61,427 nucleotides of DNA, taken from positions 1-61,427 of the forward strand of contig DCUU01000065.1 in NCBI GenBank assembly GCA_002328565.1, written 5' to 3'. The position numbers and the translations under genes were made by a program. The DNA is from Candidatus Moranbacteria bacterium UBA2206. Lineage in GTDB: Bacteria > Patescibacteriota > Minisyncoccia > Moranbacterales > UBA2206. The notes beneath the pieces were generated by a model, which was given only the letters and a program-made list of their open reading frames with translations, had not been told where the DNA came from and searched no databases. Position 1 is the first letter of the stretch; each line of letters opens with the position of its first letter. Of the stretch, positions 2,690 through 58,115 are shown one piece after another.

Positions 2690-3151
2690 ATGACTAAACA
2701 CATCCAAATCTATGAAAATGAAATCTATGAAGATGATGTAGCTGAAATAAATAGCCTACTTAAACAACTCAGTCCTAATGAATCTGAATCAATTAACTGG
2801 GAGACGGTACAAAATGTTATGAAAAATGCTACCGTATTTATTCTTCGTGACCATTCACCGGAAATATTAAAAGGAAAACCTCGTGGACGTATCGTTGGCG
2901 AAGGTCTTCTTTTTCACAATTGGAAATTTATGTTTTCCACCGGATCGATTGATGATGTTGTCGTGGATGAAAAATATCGCGGTAAAGGTCTAGGAAAGAT
3001 ATTGACATATGCAATGATTGAAAAAGCCAAAAAATTAGGCATGAAACATATTGATTGTACAAGTCGTCCCCACAGAATCGTCGCCCATAAATTATATGAA
3101 AAAGCTGGTTTTGAAAAACGAGACACTAATGTTTTTAGACTAAAACTTTAA
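2690..3151 (+). CDS. GNAT family N-acetyltransferase
   Basis: 153 aa with acetyl-CoA binding motif region VVDEKYRGKGLGKIL. Divergent from dnaJ. Confidence 0.85.
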   Translation: MTKHIQIYENEIYEDDVAEINSLLKQLSPNESESINWETVQNVMKNATVFILRDHSPEILKGKPRGRIVGEGLLFHNWKFMFSTGSIDDVVVDEKYRGKGLGKILTYAMIEKAKKLGMKHIDCTSRPHRIVAHKLYEKAGFEKRDTNVFRLKL

Positions 3152-3260
3152 TATTTTTTACTTTCTTTTCTTTCTCTTTTTTCTAAGGGATAATTTTTAA
3201 TATTTTTAGCAAACTCCTGTTTGAGAATTTGATTTTTTTCACCATTCTTATTTTCTTAGA

Positions 3261-3399
3261 TGGTTTTATTTTTTAGAATTTTTTTAACTCGAAAGTTTAT
3301 TTTTTAGCTAAAATTTTTCTCGGTCGACGGCTGAAAGAGAAAAATTTTAGAAAAAATAATCTTTCTCAAACAAGAAAAAAATTCCAAAAAATAAAACCA
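3261..3399. repeat. long imperfect palindrome, family P1 (second copy 40954..41090)
   Basis: Arms TGGTTTTATTTTTTAGAATTTTTTT / AAAAAAATTCCAAAAAATAAAACCA. Inner 14-bp stem CTAAAATTTTTCTC / GAGAAAAATTTTAG around a GC-rich loop GGTCGACGGCTGAA. Confidence 0.7.
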
Positions 3400-3410: not shown

Positions 3411-4406
3411 TCATTCCACCACTTCCATTTCCACCATCACCTTAGAAACTTGAACAAAATTAATTTTTCGAAGTATCCAAAAAACTAAAGCGGTCAGATA
3501 TCCACAAATAGAACCGAGAAAAGAACCAAGCGAAGCCACTGTCAAAAAAAGTATAAACGAAGCAATAAAAGGCAAGAACGGCATACTATCTTTCTCAAGA
3601 CTTGTAGAAAAAAATTCATTTATCTTGTTATTTATCATCTCAGAGAAAACATCTGAGATTTTTTCTTGACCTGTGAGCGGTACGCCCGCGATTTCACTAA
3701 AACTTTTTCTTTGCTCCGCCAGAATTTTTTCCTGATCATTTGCGAGTATCTTTTCTATCTGAGATTTACTAGCTCCAATTTGTTTTTCATCTAACCCCTG
3801 ACTTTCCAGAATATTTCCCAAAAAACTATCGGAATTTTCTTTGGACATTTTCAAAATAAATTCGTCTACCGTCAAGTCGCTTTTCTCACTGTCCTTGAGT
3901 TCAGGATAAATTCTCGGCAAAATTTGATTAACAGCGTCCCCTGCTTCGAATCTTGGAATGATATTTATTTTCCCCGTATCTTTTACTTCAACATAATATT
4001 GGGAAGTGATTATAATTGAAAGCGCCAAAATAAGCATTGTTTTTCCGGTGCGGACTGATTTAGTGATATCAAATTTAATATTAGATTTTATGTCGCTAGA
4101 AATTCTTTCCAGTCCTGCTAACGCCAGAAAAAAAGCAAACAGCAAAATCAAAACATGCCAAAAAGAAAAAACGAAAATAAGATTCGAAAGCAAACTAATT
4201 GCTAAAGCGGAAATCAGTATGGTTCTATTCTTGATAAGAATTGCGCCAAGAGAAAGCGCGATATAAAAAAAAGAAAAACAAATCAATGGAACTAGCCAGG
4301 TGCTTGATTCTGGCACATTAATCGCCCGTTCAACCGAAAGCCATGAAACCACCCCTAAAACAACAATAAGACCAGCTATCGCATATTTTGTAATTTTTGT
4401 TTTCAT
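3411..4406 (-). CDS. hypothetical multi-pass membrane protein
   Basis: ORF runs to 4550, but the first 48 codons are encoded by repeat X1. The ATG at 4406 (MKTKITKYAIAG...) begins the hydrophobic protein. Confidence 0.6.
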   Translation of the reverse strand: MKTKITKYAIAGLIVVLGVVSWLSVERAINVPESSTWLVPLICFSFFYIALSLGAILIKNRTILISALAISLLSNLIFVFSFWHVLILLFAFFLALAGLERISSDIKSNIKFDITKSVRTGKTMLILALSIIITSQYYVEVKDTGKINIIPRFEAGDAVNQILPRIYPELKDSEKSDLTVDEFILKMSKENSDSFLGNILESQGLDEKQIGASKSQIEKILANDQEKILAEQRKSFSEIAGVPLTGQEKISDVFSEMINNKINEFFSTSLEKDSMPFLPFIASFILFLTVASLGSFLGSICGYLTALVFWILRKINFVQVSKVMVEMEVVE

Positions 4407-5791: not shown

Positions 5792-7042
5792 TTAATAATT
5801 CTTCTTCAATTCCCTTGGCAAATCTTTCAGGTTTTTCACTTTCCAAGTTAGACCGACCTTAGCCATTTCTTCCAAAAATATTTTTGAATCCAATGATTTA
5901 TCTTCAGAATTTTTCGTGCCTATGCCACTCCATTTTCTTTCAAGAACAAGTTTTGCGCAAGTGACTGTTGGAATGGCTGTGGTATACCCAATTGCATTAC
6001 CATTAGTTTCTTTGTAGGCCTCGGCGTGGTCGCAAACATTATAGATATAGACAAATTTTTTCTTGCCATTTTTGACGCCGGAAATGATATTGCCAATATT
6101 TGTTTTGCCAGTGTAGCTACTGTTGAAATCTTCGCCTTTTGGCAAAATAGCTTTGAGAAATTTCACCGGCACTACGTCACATCCATTATAGTCAACCGCA
6201 TCAATTCGAGTCAGACCAACATTATATAGCACTCGCAAATATGTCAGATAAGTTTTGGAAAATGTCATCCAAAAACGAATTCTTTTCAAATCAGGCATAT
6301 GAGTCGGAATAGTTTCCATTTCTTCGTGATACATCAAATAGGGATCAAATTTCCCCGCTTCCGGAAAGTTAAATTCAAAATGCGGAGCTTTCTCATCAAT
6401 TAGTCGTCCCTTTTCTTGCCATTTTTTTCCTTCCCAAAATCTAATCGGCAAAATCAATTCTCGCAAATTTATCTCCGGATCAAAATTCGGCGCAAATTTT
6501 ATCTTCTCATCTTTGGAACCACCATTGCAATCCAAAATATCCACCGCATAAACTTTGTCGAAAATATAATCTCTGGCATAGGCGCAAAAAATATTGGTCA
6601 CTCCCGGATCAAAGCCCATGCCCAAAATCGCCAAAAGTCCTTTTTTCTTGAAAGCTTCATTTTTGGCTAATTGCAATTTATAAGAAAAACCATATTTATC
6701 TTTTTCTTCATAACAAGCCGTGTCGATATAGTTCACGCCATATTTCAAGCAAGCGTCCATCACATCCAAATTGTCATATGGACTTCCCCAATTCACCATT
6801 AGCTTTGGTTTCAAATCTTGCAAAAGTTTGGAAAAGAATTTTTTGTCGCTCACATCCCCAACATGAACCCTGAGATCCATTTTGCCTTTTGATTTCTTTT
6901 TCACCGAAGCGCGAACTGCTTCCAATTTGGAAATAGTTCTTCCAACTACATGAATTTCCGAAAAAGTTTCCGGAAACTGCGCCATCTTGTGCAGTCCCAC
7001 ACTACCCACATTCCCACAACCGATAACGAGCACTTTTGACAT
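5792..7042 (-). CDS. saccharopine dehydrogenase family protein / carboxynorspermidine synthase
   Basis: 416 aa with N-terminal Rossmann motif VLVIGCGNVGS. Conserved pairing with nspC. Confidence 0.8.
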   Translation of the reverse strand: MSKVLVIGCGNVGSVGLHKMAQFPETFSEIHVVGRTISKLEAVRASVKKKSKGKMDLRVHVGDVSDKKFFSKLLQDLKPKLMVNWGSPYDNLDVMDACLKYGVNYIDTACYEEKDKYGFSYKLQLAKNEAFKKKGLLAILGMGFDPGVTNIFCAYARDYIFDKVYAVDILDCNGGSKDEKIKFAPNFDPEINLRELILPIRFWEGKKWQEKGRLIDEKAPHFEFNFPEAGKFDPYLMYHEEMETIPTHMPDLKRIRFWMTFSKTYLTYLRVLYNVGLTRIDAVDYNGCDVVPVKFLKAILPKGEDFNSSYTGKTNIGNIISGVKNGKKKFVYIYNVCDHAEAYKETNGNAIGYTTAIPTVTCAKLVLERKWSGIGTKNSEDKSLDSKIFLEEMAKVGLTWKVKNLKDLPRELKKNY

Positions 7043-7107
7043 ATTTTTTAAACTAAACTTATTAACTTTTTTATTCTAGCAGATTTATTTTATTTTACCA
7101 GCAATCA

Positions 7108-7162
7108 CTCTACCTCATCCGCCTCGGATTACCTCGGCACCTTCTCCTTATAAAGGAGAAGG
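7108..7162. repeat. solo GC-rich double-hairpin module (same family as the DUF559 flanks)
   Basis: CTCTACCTCATCC-GCCTCGG-atta-CCTCGGC-CCTTCTCC-ttataaa-GGAGAAGG. Homologous to 20016..20068 (inverted orientation) and 20435..20487. The second hairpin carries two mismatches. Confidence 0.7.
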
Positions 7163-7201
7163 AAAATTAATTCTTTCTATCTTGATTAACTTTTTCTAAA
7201 A

Positions 7202-7768
7202 TCAAAAATTATTCCCTCTAAATTTATTCCGCTGTTGATATAATCTTTCCGTAAAACCTCCTTGCTTCATAAATTCATTGCTGAGTTTTTGTAGTTGCTT
7301 ATCCAAGAGATAATTTGTTTGATGAATAAGACAAATAATCATATTAGCTGCAGATTCAGAATTTTCAAGATAAGTCGCATAGGACAAATTAGACCTATTT
7401 TTATCATAAACCAAATTTCTCACCATTTTTGCTTTTGGATTTTCTTTCGTCCATAATTCTAATTTATTTTGACGCAAAAAATCCTCATAATCCAAAAGTA
7501 ATTCTTCCAGGCTCGCTCGCGCTACATTAGTCAATTTTATTTCTGTTTTCTTTGAGGTTCCAGAAGCTTTGCTTCCTTCCGCAATATTTTGCCTTCCAGA
7601 CCGTGCTGCTTGTTCCATCTGATCCTTGGTACGACTTTTCCAGTTTATATATTTTTGACAAAATTCAATAGTGAAATCGCAAACTAAGGTTGCCGACTTA
7701 AAAGATTCTAGGTTTCGATATCCGCCATGCGTAAAAAATAATTTTTCTTGATTTGTCTTATTTGTCAT
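7202..7768 (-). CDS. four-helix-bundle protein with suffix domain (23S rRNA intervening-sequence protein family)
   Basis: Motifs SATLVCDFTIEF, QAARSGRQNIAEG and NVARASLEELLLDYEDFL. Likely start at ATG 7768; the ORF extends to 7810 through a TATAAT-containing stretch. Confidence 0.75.
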   Translation of the reverse strand: MTNKTNQEKLFFTHGGYRNLESFKSATLVCDFTIEFCQKYINWKSRTKDQMEQAARSGRQNIAEGSKASGTSKKTEIKLTNVARASLEELLLDYEDFLRQNKLELWTKENPKAKMVRNLVYDKNRSNLSYATYLENSESAANMIICLIHQTNYLLDKQLQKLSNEFMKQGGFTERLYQQRNKFRGNNF

Positions 7769-7810
7769 ATTCGACTTATAGGACTTATAAACTTCTTTAT
7801 TATACCACAA

Positions 7811-10761: not shown

Positions 10762-11514
10762 TTATTTTAAAAATATTACTCCGCCTTCCACTATAGAAAT
10801 TATTACAATCGAACTGCCCAAAAGTTTTCGGGCATAATCCAATAGCGACTTGTTTTTAGCATATTTCATCCTCTTGGGTCCGACAATCGCCAAGATTCCT
10901 CTTTCGCCTTCTTTGGTCGTATATGGACTCACTACCATTGAACAATTAGAAATCTCTTTGATCGGATTTTCTTTGCCGATAAAAATTCTGGTTTCGCCGT
11001 CTTTGATTTTCGAAAGAATCGTGTCCACATTTTCATCGATATAATCCAGCGCTTCGGCAATTCGACAGAACTCATCCACATTTTGAAATTCCGGATTTTC
11101 CAAAAGTTCGCCGATTCCAAAATCATAAAATTCTTTTTCTGATCCACTGATTGCCAGGCTTCCACTGAAAGACGATAGGAGTTTGGCCGCTGTGCGAGAA
11201 ATTCTTTTATTTTGCGCCTTGAGCTTCAAAACTTCCGTTTGCAGTTTTTTCTGATCCGTCAAACTCATTTTTTGATCTGTCATAATGCTTTCCACAAAAA
11301 ACCGATATCCTTTGTCAGTTGGGATGCGTCCGGCGCTGATGTGCGGTTGATGCAAAAATCCTTTTTCTTCCAATTCCGCCATATCATTTCGAATCGTAGC
11401 CGAACTTACTTTCAAATCATATTTGTCTTCCAAAACTTTTGAGCCAACAGCAACAGCCGAATTGGTATATTCTTCAATCACCGCCGCTAAAATTTTCTTG
11501 AGTCTGTCGTTCAT
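10762..11514 (-). CDS. hrcA: heat-inducible transcription repressor HrcA (short, 250 aa)
   Basis: N-terminal winged-helix region SSATIRNDMAELEEKGFLHQPHISAGRIPTDKGYRFFV. A CIRCE operator lies upstream. Confidence 0.9.
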   Translation of the reverse strand: MNDRLKKILAAVIEEYTNSAVAVGSKVLEDKYDLKVSSATIRNDMAELEEKGFLHQPHISAGRIPTDKGYRFFVESIMTDQKMSLTDQKKLQTEVLKLKAQNKRISRTAAKLLSSFSGSLAISGSEKEFYDFGIGELLENPEFQNVDEFCRIAEALDYIDENVDTILSKIKDGETRIFIGKENPIKEISNCSMVVSPYTTKEGERGILAIVGPKRMKYAKNKSLLDYARKLLGSSIVIISIVEGGVIFLK

Positions 11515-19875: not shown

Positions 19876-19924
19876 GCCATCTTAGCTCAGTTTCCGCCAA
19901 AGGCGGACAGGGTCCGAGCGACGG
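19876..19924 (+). pseudogene. tRNA-Thr 5'-half pseudo-copy interrupted by a GC hairpin
   Basis: 19876-19892 is identical to tRNA nt 1-17 (GCCATCTTAGCTCAGTT). A 23-nt insert (TCCGCC-aaa-GGCGGA...) follows, then GAGCGACGG, identical to tRNA nt 22-30. Confidence 0.7.
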
Positions 19925-19936
19925 CCGATTATACAA

Positions 19937-20009
19937 GCCATCTTAGCTCAGTTGGTAGAGCGACGGTATCGTAAACCGTAGGTCATCAGTTCGATCCTGA
20001 TAGATGGCT
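19937..20009 (+). tRNA. tRNA-Thr (anticodon CGU)
   Basis: Acceptor GCCATCT/AGATGGC, D arm GCTC-AGTTGGTA-GAGC, anticodon arm ACGGT-ATCGTAA-ACCGT, T arm ATCAG-TTCGATC-CTGAT. Confidence 0.92.
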
Positions 20010-20015
20010 CATTTA

Positions 20016-20068
20016 CCCCCTTCTCCCTTTGGGAGAAGGTGCCTCGGTAATCCGAGGCGGATGAGGGG
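20016..20068. repeat. GC-rich double-hairpin module, left inverted repeat of the DUF559 cassette
   Basis: CCTTCTCCC-ttt-GGGAGAAGG, then GCCTCGG-taat-CCGAGGC, then GGATGAGGGG. Confidence 0.8.
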
Positions 20069-20073
20069 AAAAC

Positions 20074-20433
20074 TCACAAAAATTCTTCTATCTTTAAAAA
20101 TACTCCTTCTAAATTATCATTAATTTCATTATTCCAAAATCTTATCACTTCATATCCTCGTCTTTCTAAAAATTCTGTTCTTATTTTATCATATCCCTCC
20201 TGTTTTTCTTCCTTATGCTGAAATCCATCAATTTCTATAATAATTTTCTTTTCAATACATATAAAATCTACCACATATTTTCCTATTTGATATTGTCTTC
20301 TAAATTTCAAATTTCTAAAATTTCTATTTCTTAATTTTGACCAAATAATTATTTCTTGCGGTGTGGAATTTTTTCTTAAACTCCTATTTCTTTCTAGAAT
20401 TTGTTCTGTCAATTTTGTTTTTATTTTTATCAT
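20074..20433 (-). CDS. DUF559 endonuclease-domain protein (Vsr-like fold family)
   Basis: 119 aa: RFWNNEI C-terminus, YVVDFICIEKKIIIEIDG core, RKNSTPQE N-terminus, all typical of DUF559. Confidence 0.85.
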   Translation of the reverse strand: MIKIKTKLTEQILERNRSLRKNSTPQEIIIWSKLRNRNFRNLKFRRQYQIGKYVVDFICIEKKIIIEIDGFQHKEEKQEGYDKIRTEFLERRGYEVIRFWNNEINDNLEGVFLKIEEFL

Positions 20434-20434
20434 T

Positions 20435-20487
20435 ACACTCTCCCTCTCCTGTCCGGAGTACCGGACATCCTCTCCCTAAGGGAGAGG
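20435..20487. repeat. GC-rich double-hairpin module, right inverted repeat of the DUF559 cassette
   Basis: CTCTCCCTCTCC, then GTCCGG-agta-CCGGAC, then CCTCTCCC-taa-GGGAGAGG. Mirror order of 20016..20068. Confidence 0.8.
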
Positions 20488-20505
20488 AGGAATATTATAT
20501 TTTTA

Positions 20506-21417
20506 TTATTCTTCACACAAATTCGCAATCCGAGCAAATTCTTCATTGACTAATCTTTGAATCTCTTCTAGATGAGGTTTATTTTCTTCTTTGAATAGAT
20601 GCTTAAAACGGCCTTGGGTTTTCAAAAATTCCGTCACGGGAGTTATTTTCTTTGGTTCGAAGCTTAATTTATGTTCACCATTCTCAATTTCATATAACGG
20701 CCAAAAATTTGTTTCCGTCGCTAGCTTTCCCACATTCACATATTGTGAAGTTGGAAATTTCCAATTATTAGTACAAGGTGAAAAAACGAGCAAGAAACTT
20801 GGCCCGTCAGTTTCCAGAGCTTTCTTAGCTTTCTTTTTGAGATCAGCTAAATAGGCGACATTAGCCTGAGCCAGATATTGAATTCTGTGAGCATTTACAA
20901 TCTCCATCAAATTCTTGCGCGTCTCAATCTTTCCAAAAGATTCTTTTCCGGTTGGCGTTGTTTCGGTGAAAGCTCCATAGGGTGTAGCCGATGATCTTTG
21001 ATTGCCCGTGTTCATATACCCACCATTGTCATAACAAACATACAGAAAATTATGTCCGCGCTCAAGCGCTCCTGACAAGCTCTGCAGTCCAATGTCATAC
21101 GTTCCACCGTCTCCGCCAAAAGCCACAAATTTAATTTTTTTATTTTTAGAAATCTTGCCTTTCTTTTTCAAAGCTTCGTAGGCTCTCTCCACTCCAGAAA
21201 TCGTGGCCGCCGCATTTTCAAAAGCATTGTGAATATAGGGCGCTTTCCAAGCTGAATATGGATAGAGCGTCGAAGTCACCTCCAAACACCCCGTCGCATT
21301 GGCGATAACCACATCGGTTTTGAGTTCCCCTAAAACTGCCCGCACAATCGCCGGAAACCCACAACCCGCACAAGCGCTGTGTCCCGCCGAATAATATTTT
21401 GTTAATTCTTTGTTCAT
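20506..21417 (-). CDS. porB: pyruvate:ferredoxin (2-oxoacid) oxidoreductase beta subunit
   Basis: TPP-binding subunit: GHSACAGCG and GGDGGTYDIG motifs. Confidence 0.92.
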   Translation of the reverse strand: MNKELTKYYSAGHSACAGCGFPAIVRAVLGELKTDVVIANATGCLEVTSTLYPYSAWKAPYIHNAFENAAATISGVERAYEALKKKGKISKNKKIKFVAFGGDGGTYDIGLQSLSGALERGHNFLYVCYDNGGYMNTGNQRSSATPYGAFTETTPTGKESFGKIETRKNLMEIVNAHRIQYLAQANVAYLADLKKKAKKALETDGPSFLLVFSPCTNNWKFPTSQYVNVGKLATETNFWPLYEIENGEHKLSFEPKKITPVTEFLKTQGRFKHLFKEENKPHLEEIQRLVNEEFARIANLCEE

Positions 21418-58081: not shown

Positions 58082-58115
58082 CAGACACGCCGTGTCCAAT
58101 TGGACACGGCGTGTC
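58082..58115. repeat. perfect 15-bp GC-rich palindrome
   Basis: AGACACGCCGTGTCC-aatt-GGACACGGCGTGTCT. No adjacent T-run on either strand. Confidence 0.8.

Follow-up and report, generated by a model that had tools for sequence, protein, structure and literature searches.

A DUF559 nuclease gene between inverted BoxC-type repeats in a Moranbacteria genome: a candidate selfish DNA cassette

Why should a single small gene for a predicted nuclease lie between two inverted, strongly folding DNA modules, immediately past a tRNA gene? The question is raised by a locus in contig DCUU01000065.1 of Candidatus Moranbacteria bacterium UBA2206, a member of the Candidate Phyla Radiation (CPR); the whole analysed stretch of 61,427 bp is referred to below as the window. 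An earlier reading of the sequence alone (the original prediction) had described the unit as a minimal mobile cassette, a nuclease gene with structured inverted repeats at its two ends, and this description is borne out by empty sites, copies at other loci and deletion derivatives, so that the view that the cassette is or was mobile now has good comparative support. The unit is probably, if by no means certainly, a selfish DNA cassette, about 475 bp long, in which the gene of a Vsr-fold nuclease lies between inverted BoxC-type repeats and which gives rise to non-autonomous derivatives. A role of the nuclease in the mobility of the cassette is plausible.

The cassette and the identity of its modules

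The elements of the locus, and a solitary copy of the module found elsewhere in the window, are as follows (coordinates are those of the window).

19937–20010, plus strand: tRNA-Thr(CGT) gene, placed by ARAGORN and matched by the Rfam tRNA model with 65.7 bits
20017–20068, plus strand in module orientation: 3'-side cassette module, downstream of the DUF559 stop codon, recognised by fold, alignment and both detectors
20019–20027 and 20031–20039: hairpin 1 of the 3'-side module, pyrimidine arm CCTTCTCCC, loop ttt, purine arm GGGAGAAGG
20041–20047 and 20052–20058: hairpin 2 of the 3'-side module, GCCTCGG, loop taat, CCGAGGC
20059–20068: tail of the 3'-side module, GGATGAGGGG, giving the mirrored third strand GGATGAGGG(G)
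20074–20433, minus strand: intact open reading frame (ORF) of 119 amino acids (aa), DUF559 (YcjD-like) predicted nuclease gene, Pfam PF04480, E = 6e-37
20435–20492, minus strand in module orientation: 5'-side cassette module, upstream of the DUF559 start codon, recognised by fold, alignment and both detectors
20438–20449: tail of the 5'-side module, CTCTCCCTCTCC, whose reverse complement is the third strand GGAGAGGGAGAG
20450–20467: hairpin 2 of the 5'-side module, (T)GTCCGG, loop agta, CCGGAC(A)
20469–20476 and 20480–20487: hairpin 1 of the 5'-side module, CCTCTCCC, loop taa, GGGAGAGG
20506–21417, minus strand: porB-like gene (TPP_enzyme_C, pyruvate:ferredoxin oxidoreductase beta subunit), assigned by Pfam, with its stop codon at 20506
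7106–7164, minus strand: solo module, recognised by alignment and both detectors, with hairpin 1 CCTTCTCC/ttataaa/GGAGAAGG, a degenerate hairpin 2 and the third strand GGATGAGG

All of the hairpins and tails that had been listed for the two flanks are present at their positions. Since the tRNA-Thr(CGT) gene spans 19937–20010, the gap between its 3' end and the first module is 6 nucleotides (nt), as had been claimed, and the DUF559 gene is indeed the only ORF and hence the sole cargo of the unit. The third, solitary module announced near position 7108 corresponds to the copy at 7106–7164, which is homologous to the others by alignment. The claim that the unit is far more GC-rich than its surroundings holds for the modules (52–55% GC) but not for the gene (about 20–30%), the genome as a whole having 36%.

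Folding of the modules is more stable than that of shuffled sequences (z = -3.2 to -5.1), and once the left module is reverse-complemented, all three modules of the window align as homologues with 76% column identity. A structure-based detector, which looks for a pyrimidine arm, a purine arm and a mirrored third strand and gave 2 matches in 1,600 shuffled flanks, reported exactly three sites in the window. This detector accepts G.T and penalises C.A pairs, so that counts of wobble asymmetry between the two, which were meant to tell RNA-level from DNA-level hairpins, are biased and were not used. An nhmmer profile, built mainly from the modules of relatives, found the same three modules (E = 7.5e-18, 5.8e-11 and 1e-7) and one further match, a weak echo of the palindromic hairpin 1 of the right module on the opposite strand.

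The part of the module described as a tail in the original prediction proved to have an additional property that had been missed there: it is a third strand, the mirror image of hairpin 1's purine arm. In all three window modules it forms an antiparallel purine-motif mirror of that arm, with G.G, A.A and T.A triplets, the mirror pairs being GGGAGAAGG and GGATGAGGG in the left module, GGGAGAGG and GGAGAGGG in the right and GGAGAAGG and GGATGAGG in the solo copy. Over 167 modules, 85.5% of positions obey the mirror, as against 75.7% after permutation (the maximum of 200 permutations being 77.4%), and perfect mirrors make up 26% against 6% in permuted data. Arm and tail covary among these modules, as in the pairs GGGAGAGGG-GGGTGAGGG, GGGAGAAGG-GGATGAGGG and GGGGAGGG-GGGTGGGG. 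Such symmetry suggests that single-stranded module DNA can fold into a hairpin joined to a purine-motif triplex.

This three-part design, in which a pyrimidine arm, a complementary purine arm and a G-rich mirror strand follow one another, is that of a repeat family first described as BoxC and later renamed PIT (potential intrastrand triplex) and TM or TMECO (intrastrand triplex motif), the history of which, from Bergler 1992 through Hoyne and Maher 2000 to Holder et al. 2015, is given in PMC4666352. The published consensus is CCCTCNCCC-N3-6-GGGNGAGGG-N3-GGGNGAGGG (PMC4666352). According to Holder et al. 2015, Escherichia coli K-12 has 23 copies, five of them as inverted pairs, triplex motifs occur in more than 260 genomes, and the triplex forms in vitro, as established for the E. 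coli sequence only (PMC4666352). The arms are alike as well, CCCTCTCCC / GGGAGAGGG / GGGTGAGGG in E. coli corresponding to CCTTCTCCC / GGGAGAAGG / GGATGAGGG in the window, and both sets comprise solo copies and heterotypic inverted pairs with short spacers, lie in intergenic regions and vary in presence among strains. On these sequence features the window modules can be assigned with high confidence to the BoxC/PIT/TM family.

With arms CCTTCTCCC or CCTCTCCC, they nevertheless fail the literal TMECO consensus, because their second loop consists of 15–21 nt and contains a hairpin of its own, whereas that of the E. coli copies has 3 nt (TTA or CCG); the host, an AT-rich CPR bacterium, differs too. 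Bridging forms with second loops of 4–12 nt were found in the flanks of Legionella DUF559 genes and in more than 120 viral or prophage contigs, and both the Legionella flanks (L063 and L082; comparison loci are cited by such numbers) and those contigs share the conserved core GGGAGAAGGTGCC...GGCGGATGAGGG. The window copies are thus a variant subtype of the BoxC-type family. Searches of Rfam returned only tRNAs, both in the window (gathering and E-value modes) and in 20 related loci (gathering mode); the best sub-threshold matches in the window were at chance level, for example whalefall-1 with 12 bits. The original prediction had known of no described function for such DNA: the modules turn out to belong to a named repeat family, which is itself functionally unexplained, having neither a known function nor a link to mobile elements in the account of Holder et al. 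2015 (PMC4666352).

DUF559/YcjD proteins are among the commonest small bacterial proteins with a domain of unknown function, E. coli K-12 having one. The Pfam match of the window protein covers positions 4–107 of the 109 in the PF04480 profile, and among NCBIfam models that of YcjD, PRK09767, matches best, although under its equivalog cut-off (97 vs 218 bits). The closest solved structure by sequence is PDB 3HRL, a Neisseria DUF559 protein (E = 8e-20). An AlphaFold2 model of the window protein (pLDDT 88.7) also has 3HRL as its top Foldseek match, followed by I-Bth0305I (E = 4e-5, TM-score 0.60–0.75) and Vsr (E = 9e-3), and a profile of 52 homologues reaches the catalytic domain of I-Bth0305I (3R3P) with E = 3e-4. 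Residues D56, E67, D69 and H73 are invariant across the 52 homologues, and a weak PADLOC match ('HEase') was obtained for the window protein. It is, on the evidence of profiles and the structural model, a predicted nuclease of the DUF559/YcjD family with the Vsr-type PD-(D/E)XK fold. The gene evolves under purifying selection (dN/dS, the ratio of non-synonymous to synonymous substitution rates, 0.11–0.29). Searches for its carriage by other replicons gave no phage match and only 4 plasmid or chromid matches at E <= 1e-10, and hence no evidence for phages or plasmids as vehicles. Genes for a recombinase, an integrase or a cytosine methyltransferase do not adjoin the cassette in the window neighbourhood.

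Association with DUF559 genes and signs of mobility

The association of the modules with DUF559 was quantified at 80 DUF559 loci fetched from species-representative genomes of Moranbacteria, Melainabacteria/Gastranaerophilales, Legionella, Micavibrio, Deinococcus and others. A sense module ends at most 170 nt upstream of the start codon at 60 of these loci, an antisense module lies at most 120 nt past the stop codon at 53, and 49 have both; the usual arrangement is tails-inward. The local background density predicts 0.018 modules per flank, about 40-fold fewer than observed. A cruder detector applied to the same loci gave 50 upstream, 44 downstream and 35 with both. The original prediction had stated that G/C-rich DNA coding for 'PLP-GEG' often precedes DUF559 genes in other phyla; this pattern proved quantitatively strong, with modules flanking most of the 80 loci. 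Other modules in a locus resemble the flanking ones (0.755, compared with 0.627 after permutation and a permutation maximum of 0.695), indicating that the gene is flanked by modules of the cognate subtype.

Gene callers often render the modules as N- or C-terminal extensions of the DUF559 protein, for example SLRERMPEGQVRE and PPRPYSGEGWGEG, which is of practical importance: DUF559 ORFs are extended, and small ORFs are invented, through the repeats ('PLSLRER...', 'GEGWGEG'). A Sphingomonas locus (L250) has its DUF559 gene flanked on each side by a pair of modules, in the order [- +] gene [- +]. In the literature searched, which subscription-only papers lay beyond, no link between DUF559/YcjD/COG2852 and BoxC/PIT/triplex repeats was found, and neither ycjD nor an endonuclease is mentioned in the main text of Holder et al. 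2015 (PMC4666352). The connection of the two families, each already known, therefore appears to be unreported.

Evidence for mobility comes first from the insertion site, which is polymorphic and is bordered by the 3' end of the tRNA-Thr gene on one side and by the stop codon of the porB-like gene on the other. The site is occupied in the window, in the relatives L001, L002, L006, L007 and L225 and in the more distant L003 and L004. The search for empty sites in relatives that had been proposed was successful: in L090, whose porB is 90% identical, the tRNA-Thr gene follows 16 nt past the porB stop codon, and in L091 (83%) porB is followed directly by tRNA-Thr. Unrelated small ORFs occupy the same gap in L087–L089 (porB 92% identical) and L093 (82%), so that the porB|tRNA-Thr gap is a hotspot for small insertions. 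At the site equivalent to 20011–20505 of the window, those in L087 (positions 3925–4254, 109 aa) and L093 (3924–4130, 68 aa) have no Pfam match.

Another Moraniibacteriota genome (L005/L008) has the same unit of module, gene and module, placed there between uvrA and a LexA-like gene. When the window is compared with cassettes at unrelated loci (L008, L068 and L009), identity stays at background level up to the outer edge of the 5' module (about -60 to -79), where it climbs to 80–100%, and it declines again beyond about +420, where the 3' module ends, which delimits the conserved block. The 5' module is about 100% identical to that at other loci (L005/L008, L068), although the number of synonymous substitutions per site (dS) in the gene is about 1.1; conservation is higher in the non-coding modules than in the gene.

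A metagenome scan with the exact 24-nt core of the 5' module yielded 32 loci, only three of which (L225, L231/L242) carry an intact gene. Five others (L218, L220, L235, L239 and L243) keep both modules with only the first 15–55 nt and the last 10–25 nt of the ORF, and their deletion endpoints differ. One of these derivatives, L218, comes from a close relative, in which it occupies the porB|tRNA-Thr site itself. About 20 further loci are gene-less tails-inward pairs of 105–170 bp in differing flanking contexts; the internally deleted, gene-less pairs as a whole measure 105–190 bp and have the same topology as the BoxC pairs of E. coli. Every element in this unbiased scan that was long enough for a gene held DUF559 or its remnants. 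The subtype of the 3' module differs between close relatives at the same locus (the window and L218), which points to turnover of, or conversion among, copies. A cassette that leaves gene-less repeat pairs behind suggests where BoxC-type repeats originate.

Between the window and L006, dS is 0.14 for DUF559 and 0.50 for porB, which is suggestive of recent conversion or transfer, or else reflects noise in a gene of 119 codons; between the window and L003 dS is saturated for both genes. Signs of decay are seen in L007, where the start codon at 2495–2497 is changed from ATG to ACG, in L239, which has ATA for ATG besides its internal deletion, and in L068, where the stop codon comes three codons early.

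In E. coli K-12, BoxC/TMECO copy #9 (1,351,204–1,351,239) lies just upstream of fabI and 167 nt from ycjD. [quoted passage not shown] The K-12 locus thus shows what appears to be a decayed version of the cassette arrangement. The duplicate (ETVLENI...GLNR) is located between ycjD and fabI at about 11315–11360 and 11205–11240 of L086 (1,351,2xx–1,351,3xx of the K-12 genome), and the stop codon of ycjD falls within the loop of a degenerate palindrome resembling hairpin 1.

How the cassette might spread, and other readings

If the cassette is a selfish element, the DUF559 nuclease would recognise or cut DNA at or near the modules, in folded or duplex form, and the break would be repaired by recombination such that the unit is copied in the fashion of homing or gap repair. 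The modules would have two functions in this process, being at once the structure that is recognised and the homology on which repair draws. Interrupted repair would leave internally deleted non-autonomous pairs and solo copies, while ectopic conversion among copies could account for the extreme conservation of the modules and for the exchange of module subtypes. The independent internal deletions that retain both ends can be read as the footprint of repair synthesis that proceeded inward from the ends and was interrupted. In such a scheme DUF559 might stand to BoxC-type repeats as RAYT stands to REP/REPIN.

Catalogues of the BoxC/PIT/triplex repeats go back to 1992 and take in E. coli, cyanobacteria and hundreds of other genomes, without an origin, a function or a mobilising enzyme having been assigned to the repeats. 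That YcjD-like DUF559 nucleases are the missing enzyme partner of these repeats throughout Bacteria, and together with them make up an unrecognised class of selfish elements, is a broader proposal that we put forward only tentatively and hold to be somewhat less probable than its negation. The ends of elements of this class would fold into hairpin-triplex DNA, the sole protein would be a Vsr-fold nuclease of 110–120 aa, the elements would spread through repair copying triggered by the nuclease, and the solo and paired repeats would be non-autonomous relics. If true, it would explain a 30-year-old puzzle about BoxC in a manner directly testable in E. coli, define a new design of mobile element with a Vsr-fold nuclease and termini of non-B DNA, and offer a mechanistic candidate for the hypervariability of triplex-motif loci.

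Several observations weigh against the selfish-cassette reading. The reverse orientation of modules is seen at 2 of the 80 DUF559 loci and in one Synechocystis plasmid copy. Modules are mostly far from DUF559: none of the 107 found in 80 viral or prophage loci lies within 200 nt of such a gene, and just one of the 23 BoxC copies of E. coli K-12 is beside one. In alphaproteobacteria-like contigs the pairs are mostly tails-outward, with spacers of about 25 nt. Target-site duplications, another feature that had been suggested for checking, did not emerge: no consistent direct repeat was found at about 28 element ends, which have AT-rich junctions at most. Between the window and L003, DUF559 and porB have diverged alike (80% and 79% aa identity), and the cassette at the porB site could be ancestral with several losses and not repeatedly gained. 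No activity of any small DUF559 protein is reported in the literature searched, and to our knowledge no transposase family uses the Vsr fold alone.

The distribution of the repeats among E. coli strains belongs with these points. The phylogroups given here for the counted strains are those to which we take them to belong. Published TMECO counts are 0–2 in CFT073, UTI89, S88, SE15, NA114 and others (B2), 13–30 and mostly 18–30 in A, B1 and C (MG1655 23, IAI1 29, W 30, UMNK88 13), and 6–15 in D, E and F strains. The ycjD gene, found as a single copy in 3,378 of 5,426 complete E. coli genomes, is present in phylogroups A, B1 and C (and in sequence types ST69 and ST182) and is elsewhere replaced by eefRABCD (PMC12817139). 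The published BoxC counts thus track the presence of ycjD, a correlation that is striking but confounded by phylogeny, because few independent events are involved, and that is to be taken as a hint. D, E and F strains keep their copies with ycjD reported absent, and modules therefore persist without the gene.

The last point is in keeping with the main rival explanation, in which the modules spread without DUF559, by template switching at triplexes or hairpins or through another enzyme, and the nuclease processes the structures as a caretaker or rides along as a hitch-hiker, its association with them resulting from co-selection or capture. Modules also far outnumber DUF559 genes, and the loci of triplex motifs are hypervariable among E. 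coli strains, a property which Holder et al. 2015 attributed to the DNA structure itself (PMC4666352). Two findings had been named beforehand as together telling against a mobile nuclease cassette: modules that occur independently of DUF559, which are indeed observed, and a site without polymorphism, which is not, since empty sites exist. The rival explanation does not, however, account for the placement of one small gene family, in fixed orientation, between inverted modules across phyla, as in the 49 loci with both flanks, nor for flanking modules of the genome's own subtype, nor for DUF559 or its remnants in every gene-sized element of the scan with the 5' module. We regard it as unlikely, though as a serious competitor to the selfish cassette.

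Much less probable is that the modules are merely expression signals, the upstream one a promoter or 5' untranslated region (5'-UTR) element and the downstream one a terminator, with no role in mobility. The tail of the window's 5'-side module does provide a Shine-Dalgarno-like GGAG 5–10 nt ahead of the ATG, as in other CPR copies, the downstream module begins 5 nt past the stop codon, and RNA polymerase can pause at GC-rich hairpins. However, a tail-borne Shine-Dalgarno sequence was found at 17 of the 60 loci with an upstream module, the window included, whereas at 22 of them a -10-like box (TG-extended in 16) lies 3–13 nt before the ATG, between module and gene, and the two arrangements are almost mutually exclusive. 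A -10 box in that position implies a leaderless transcript from which the module is excluded. In Melainabacteria-type cassettes (L020, L027, L036, L053, L054, L077–L080 and others) a TGnTATAAT sequence ends about 6 nt before the ATG and no Shine-Dalgarno sequence is present, which implies leaderless DUF559 mRNAs.

A scan of the modules for promoters and terminators revealed neither a consensus nor a T-run, Rfam held no match, and solo and gene-less copies are common. Purine-motif triplexes are absent in RNA, and PIT elements lack promoter or terminator activity in E. coli (both cited in PMC4666352). One and the same DNA element stands at both ends, in inverted orientation, and its mirrored third strand has no rationale at the level of RNA, so that a role of the modules at the DNA level is favoured.

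It is also very improbable that the flanking inverted repeats drive a programmed inversion of the DUF559 gene. The annotation 'DUF559 domain-containing protein' is enriched among predicted programmed-inversion targets, with an odds ratio of 14.3 (PMC9881135), but such enrichment is expected of any gene between inverted repeats. Only one orientation was found at porB|tRNA-Thr in all of the occupied assemblies listed above, and a recombinase gene is lacking nearby. As the expression signals lie inside the repeats, flipping would change nothing, and the empty sites, the other loci and the deletion derivatives would be left unexplained. Finally, a chance neighbourhood of a generic GC-rich intergenic repeat and an unrelated small gene, which the very wide distribution of the repeat family might suggest, is effectively refuted by an association about 40-fold over background with defined orientation at 80 loci, by conservation of the block at other loci and by deletion derivatives that keep the ends of the ORF.

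Two further candidates were rejected. The unit is not an integron gene cassette, given that no integrase is found nearby, that it has two inverted modules instead of one attC site and that Rfam is empty. Nor did cargo other than DUF559 emerge between the modules of alphaproteobacteria-like viral contigs, in which they only punctuate the intergenic spaces among phage genes. The prophage contigs of this kind (63–67% GC; L098, L101, L121, L126, L132, L141, L142, L154, L174 and L176) carry the GGGAGAAGGTGCC..GGCGGATGAGGG subtype, and their mostly tails-outward pairs are oriented contrary to the tails-inward pairs of CPR bacteria and to the majority of pairs in E. coli.

Relation to known systems and neighbouring features

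Among known systems, REP/REPIN repeats with their RAYT genes offer the closest architectural parallel: short palindromic repeats, rich in GC, that are scattered singly and as inverted doublets, with a single- or low-copy gene between inverted repeats of the genome's own subtype. The enzyme here is a predicted Vsr-fold PD-(D/E)XK nuclease and not an HUH/Y1 transposase, and because of this difference the cassette lies outside the REP/RAYT family and the likeness is one of architecture only. In addition, a GTAG-type tetranucleotide is lacking, and the modules carry a third strand that, judging from its sequence, would form a triplex.

Free-standing homing endonuclease genes, in particular those of I-Bth0305I (PDB 3R3P) and of the Vsr-like homing endonucleases, have in common with the cassette the nuclease fold, here that of a family with proven homing endonucleases, and the presence or absence of a small selfish gene at an otherwise conserved site; copying through the repair of breaks would also fit the internally deleted derivatives. 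I-Bth0305I differs, however, in being intron-encoded and in having an extra DNA-binding region, and homing genes normally have neither terminal inverted repeats nor dispersed non-autonomous copies at unrelated sites. E. coli Vsr has the same fold and type of catalytic core, but it belongs to PF03852 and not to PF04480, and the DUF559 gene is part of a repeat-flanked cassette with no adjacent cytosine methyltransferase, in contrast to the dcm-vsr operon.

With insertion sequences and miniature inverted-repeat transposable elements the cassette has in common terminal inverted repeats around one ORF, internally deleted, gene-less derivatives in many contexts and empty orthologous sites. It differs from them in lacking a target-site duplication, in that its 119-aa ORF does not encode a DDE, HUH, Ser, Tyr or Cas1 enzyme, and in that its ends are conserved across phyla and may fold into non-B DNA.

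The remaining observations concern the surroundings of the cassette and of the solo module. A truncated copy of the tRNA-Thr gene lies just upstream of the intact one, outside the cassette.

19876–19936, plus strand: truncated copy of the 5' half of tRNA-Thr in which a GC hairpin replaces the D-loop, recognised by an exact 17-nt repeat

It starts with an exact 17-nt copy, GCCATCTTAGCTCAGTT, which is followed by the hairpin TCCGCC-aaa-GGCGGA and then by GAGCGACGG. The copy is kept in L087, L091 and L093 and missing from L090, and is a sign of past rearrangement at the hotspot. In L003, the relative that carries an 80%-identical cassette, the intact tRNA-Thr gene stands amid an array of tRNA fragments (6420–6750), made up of a single 3' fragment and a number of 5' halves, some of which have hairpin insertions. 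The same relative has a 128-aa PDDEXK_3 (PF13366) gene at 2909–3295, between the genes for the gamma subunit of pyruvate:ferredoxin oxidoreductase and for ferredoxin; it is absent from the operon in the window and looks like another inserted small nuclease gene.

The solo module has a four-helix-bundle (23S_rRNA_IVP-like) gene on one side and a saccharopine-dehydrogenase-like gene on the other. The 202-aa ORF beside it (7202–7810, minus strand) has a weak match to PF05635 (E = 5e-7, under the cut-off), the four-helix-bundle family of 23S rRNA-intervening-sequence proteins, which are frequent in odd, insertion-like contexts.

A 3' fragment of tRNA-Thr has the palindrome CCCTGCCTGCCGGCAGGCAGGG in place of its T-loop, and the same palindrome is nested within BoxC-type modules at several metagenome loci (observations from L087, at about 4262–4325, and also from L228, L232, L245 and L026). 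It looks as if these CPR genomes had a second palindromic insertion sequence, GC-rich and even smaller. The window itself contains, at 58087–58112, a perfect palindrome with a 10-bp stem, ACGCCGTGTC-CAATTG-GACACGGCGT, which is unusually GC-rich for the genome.

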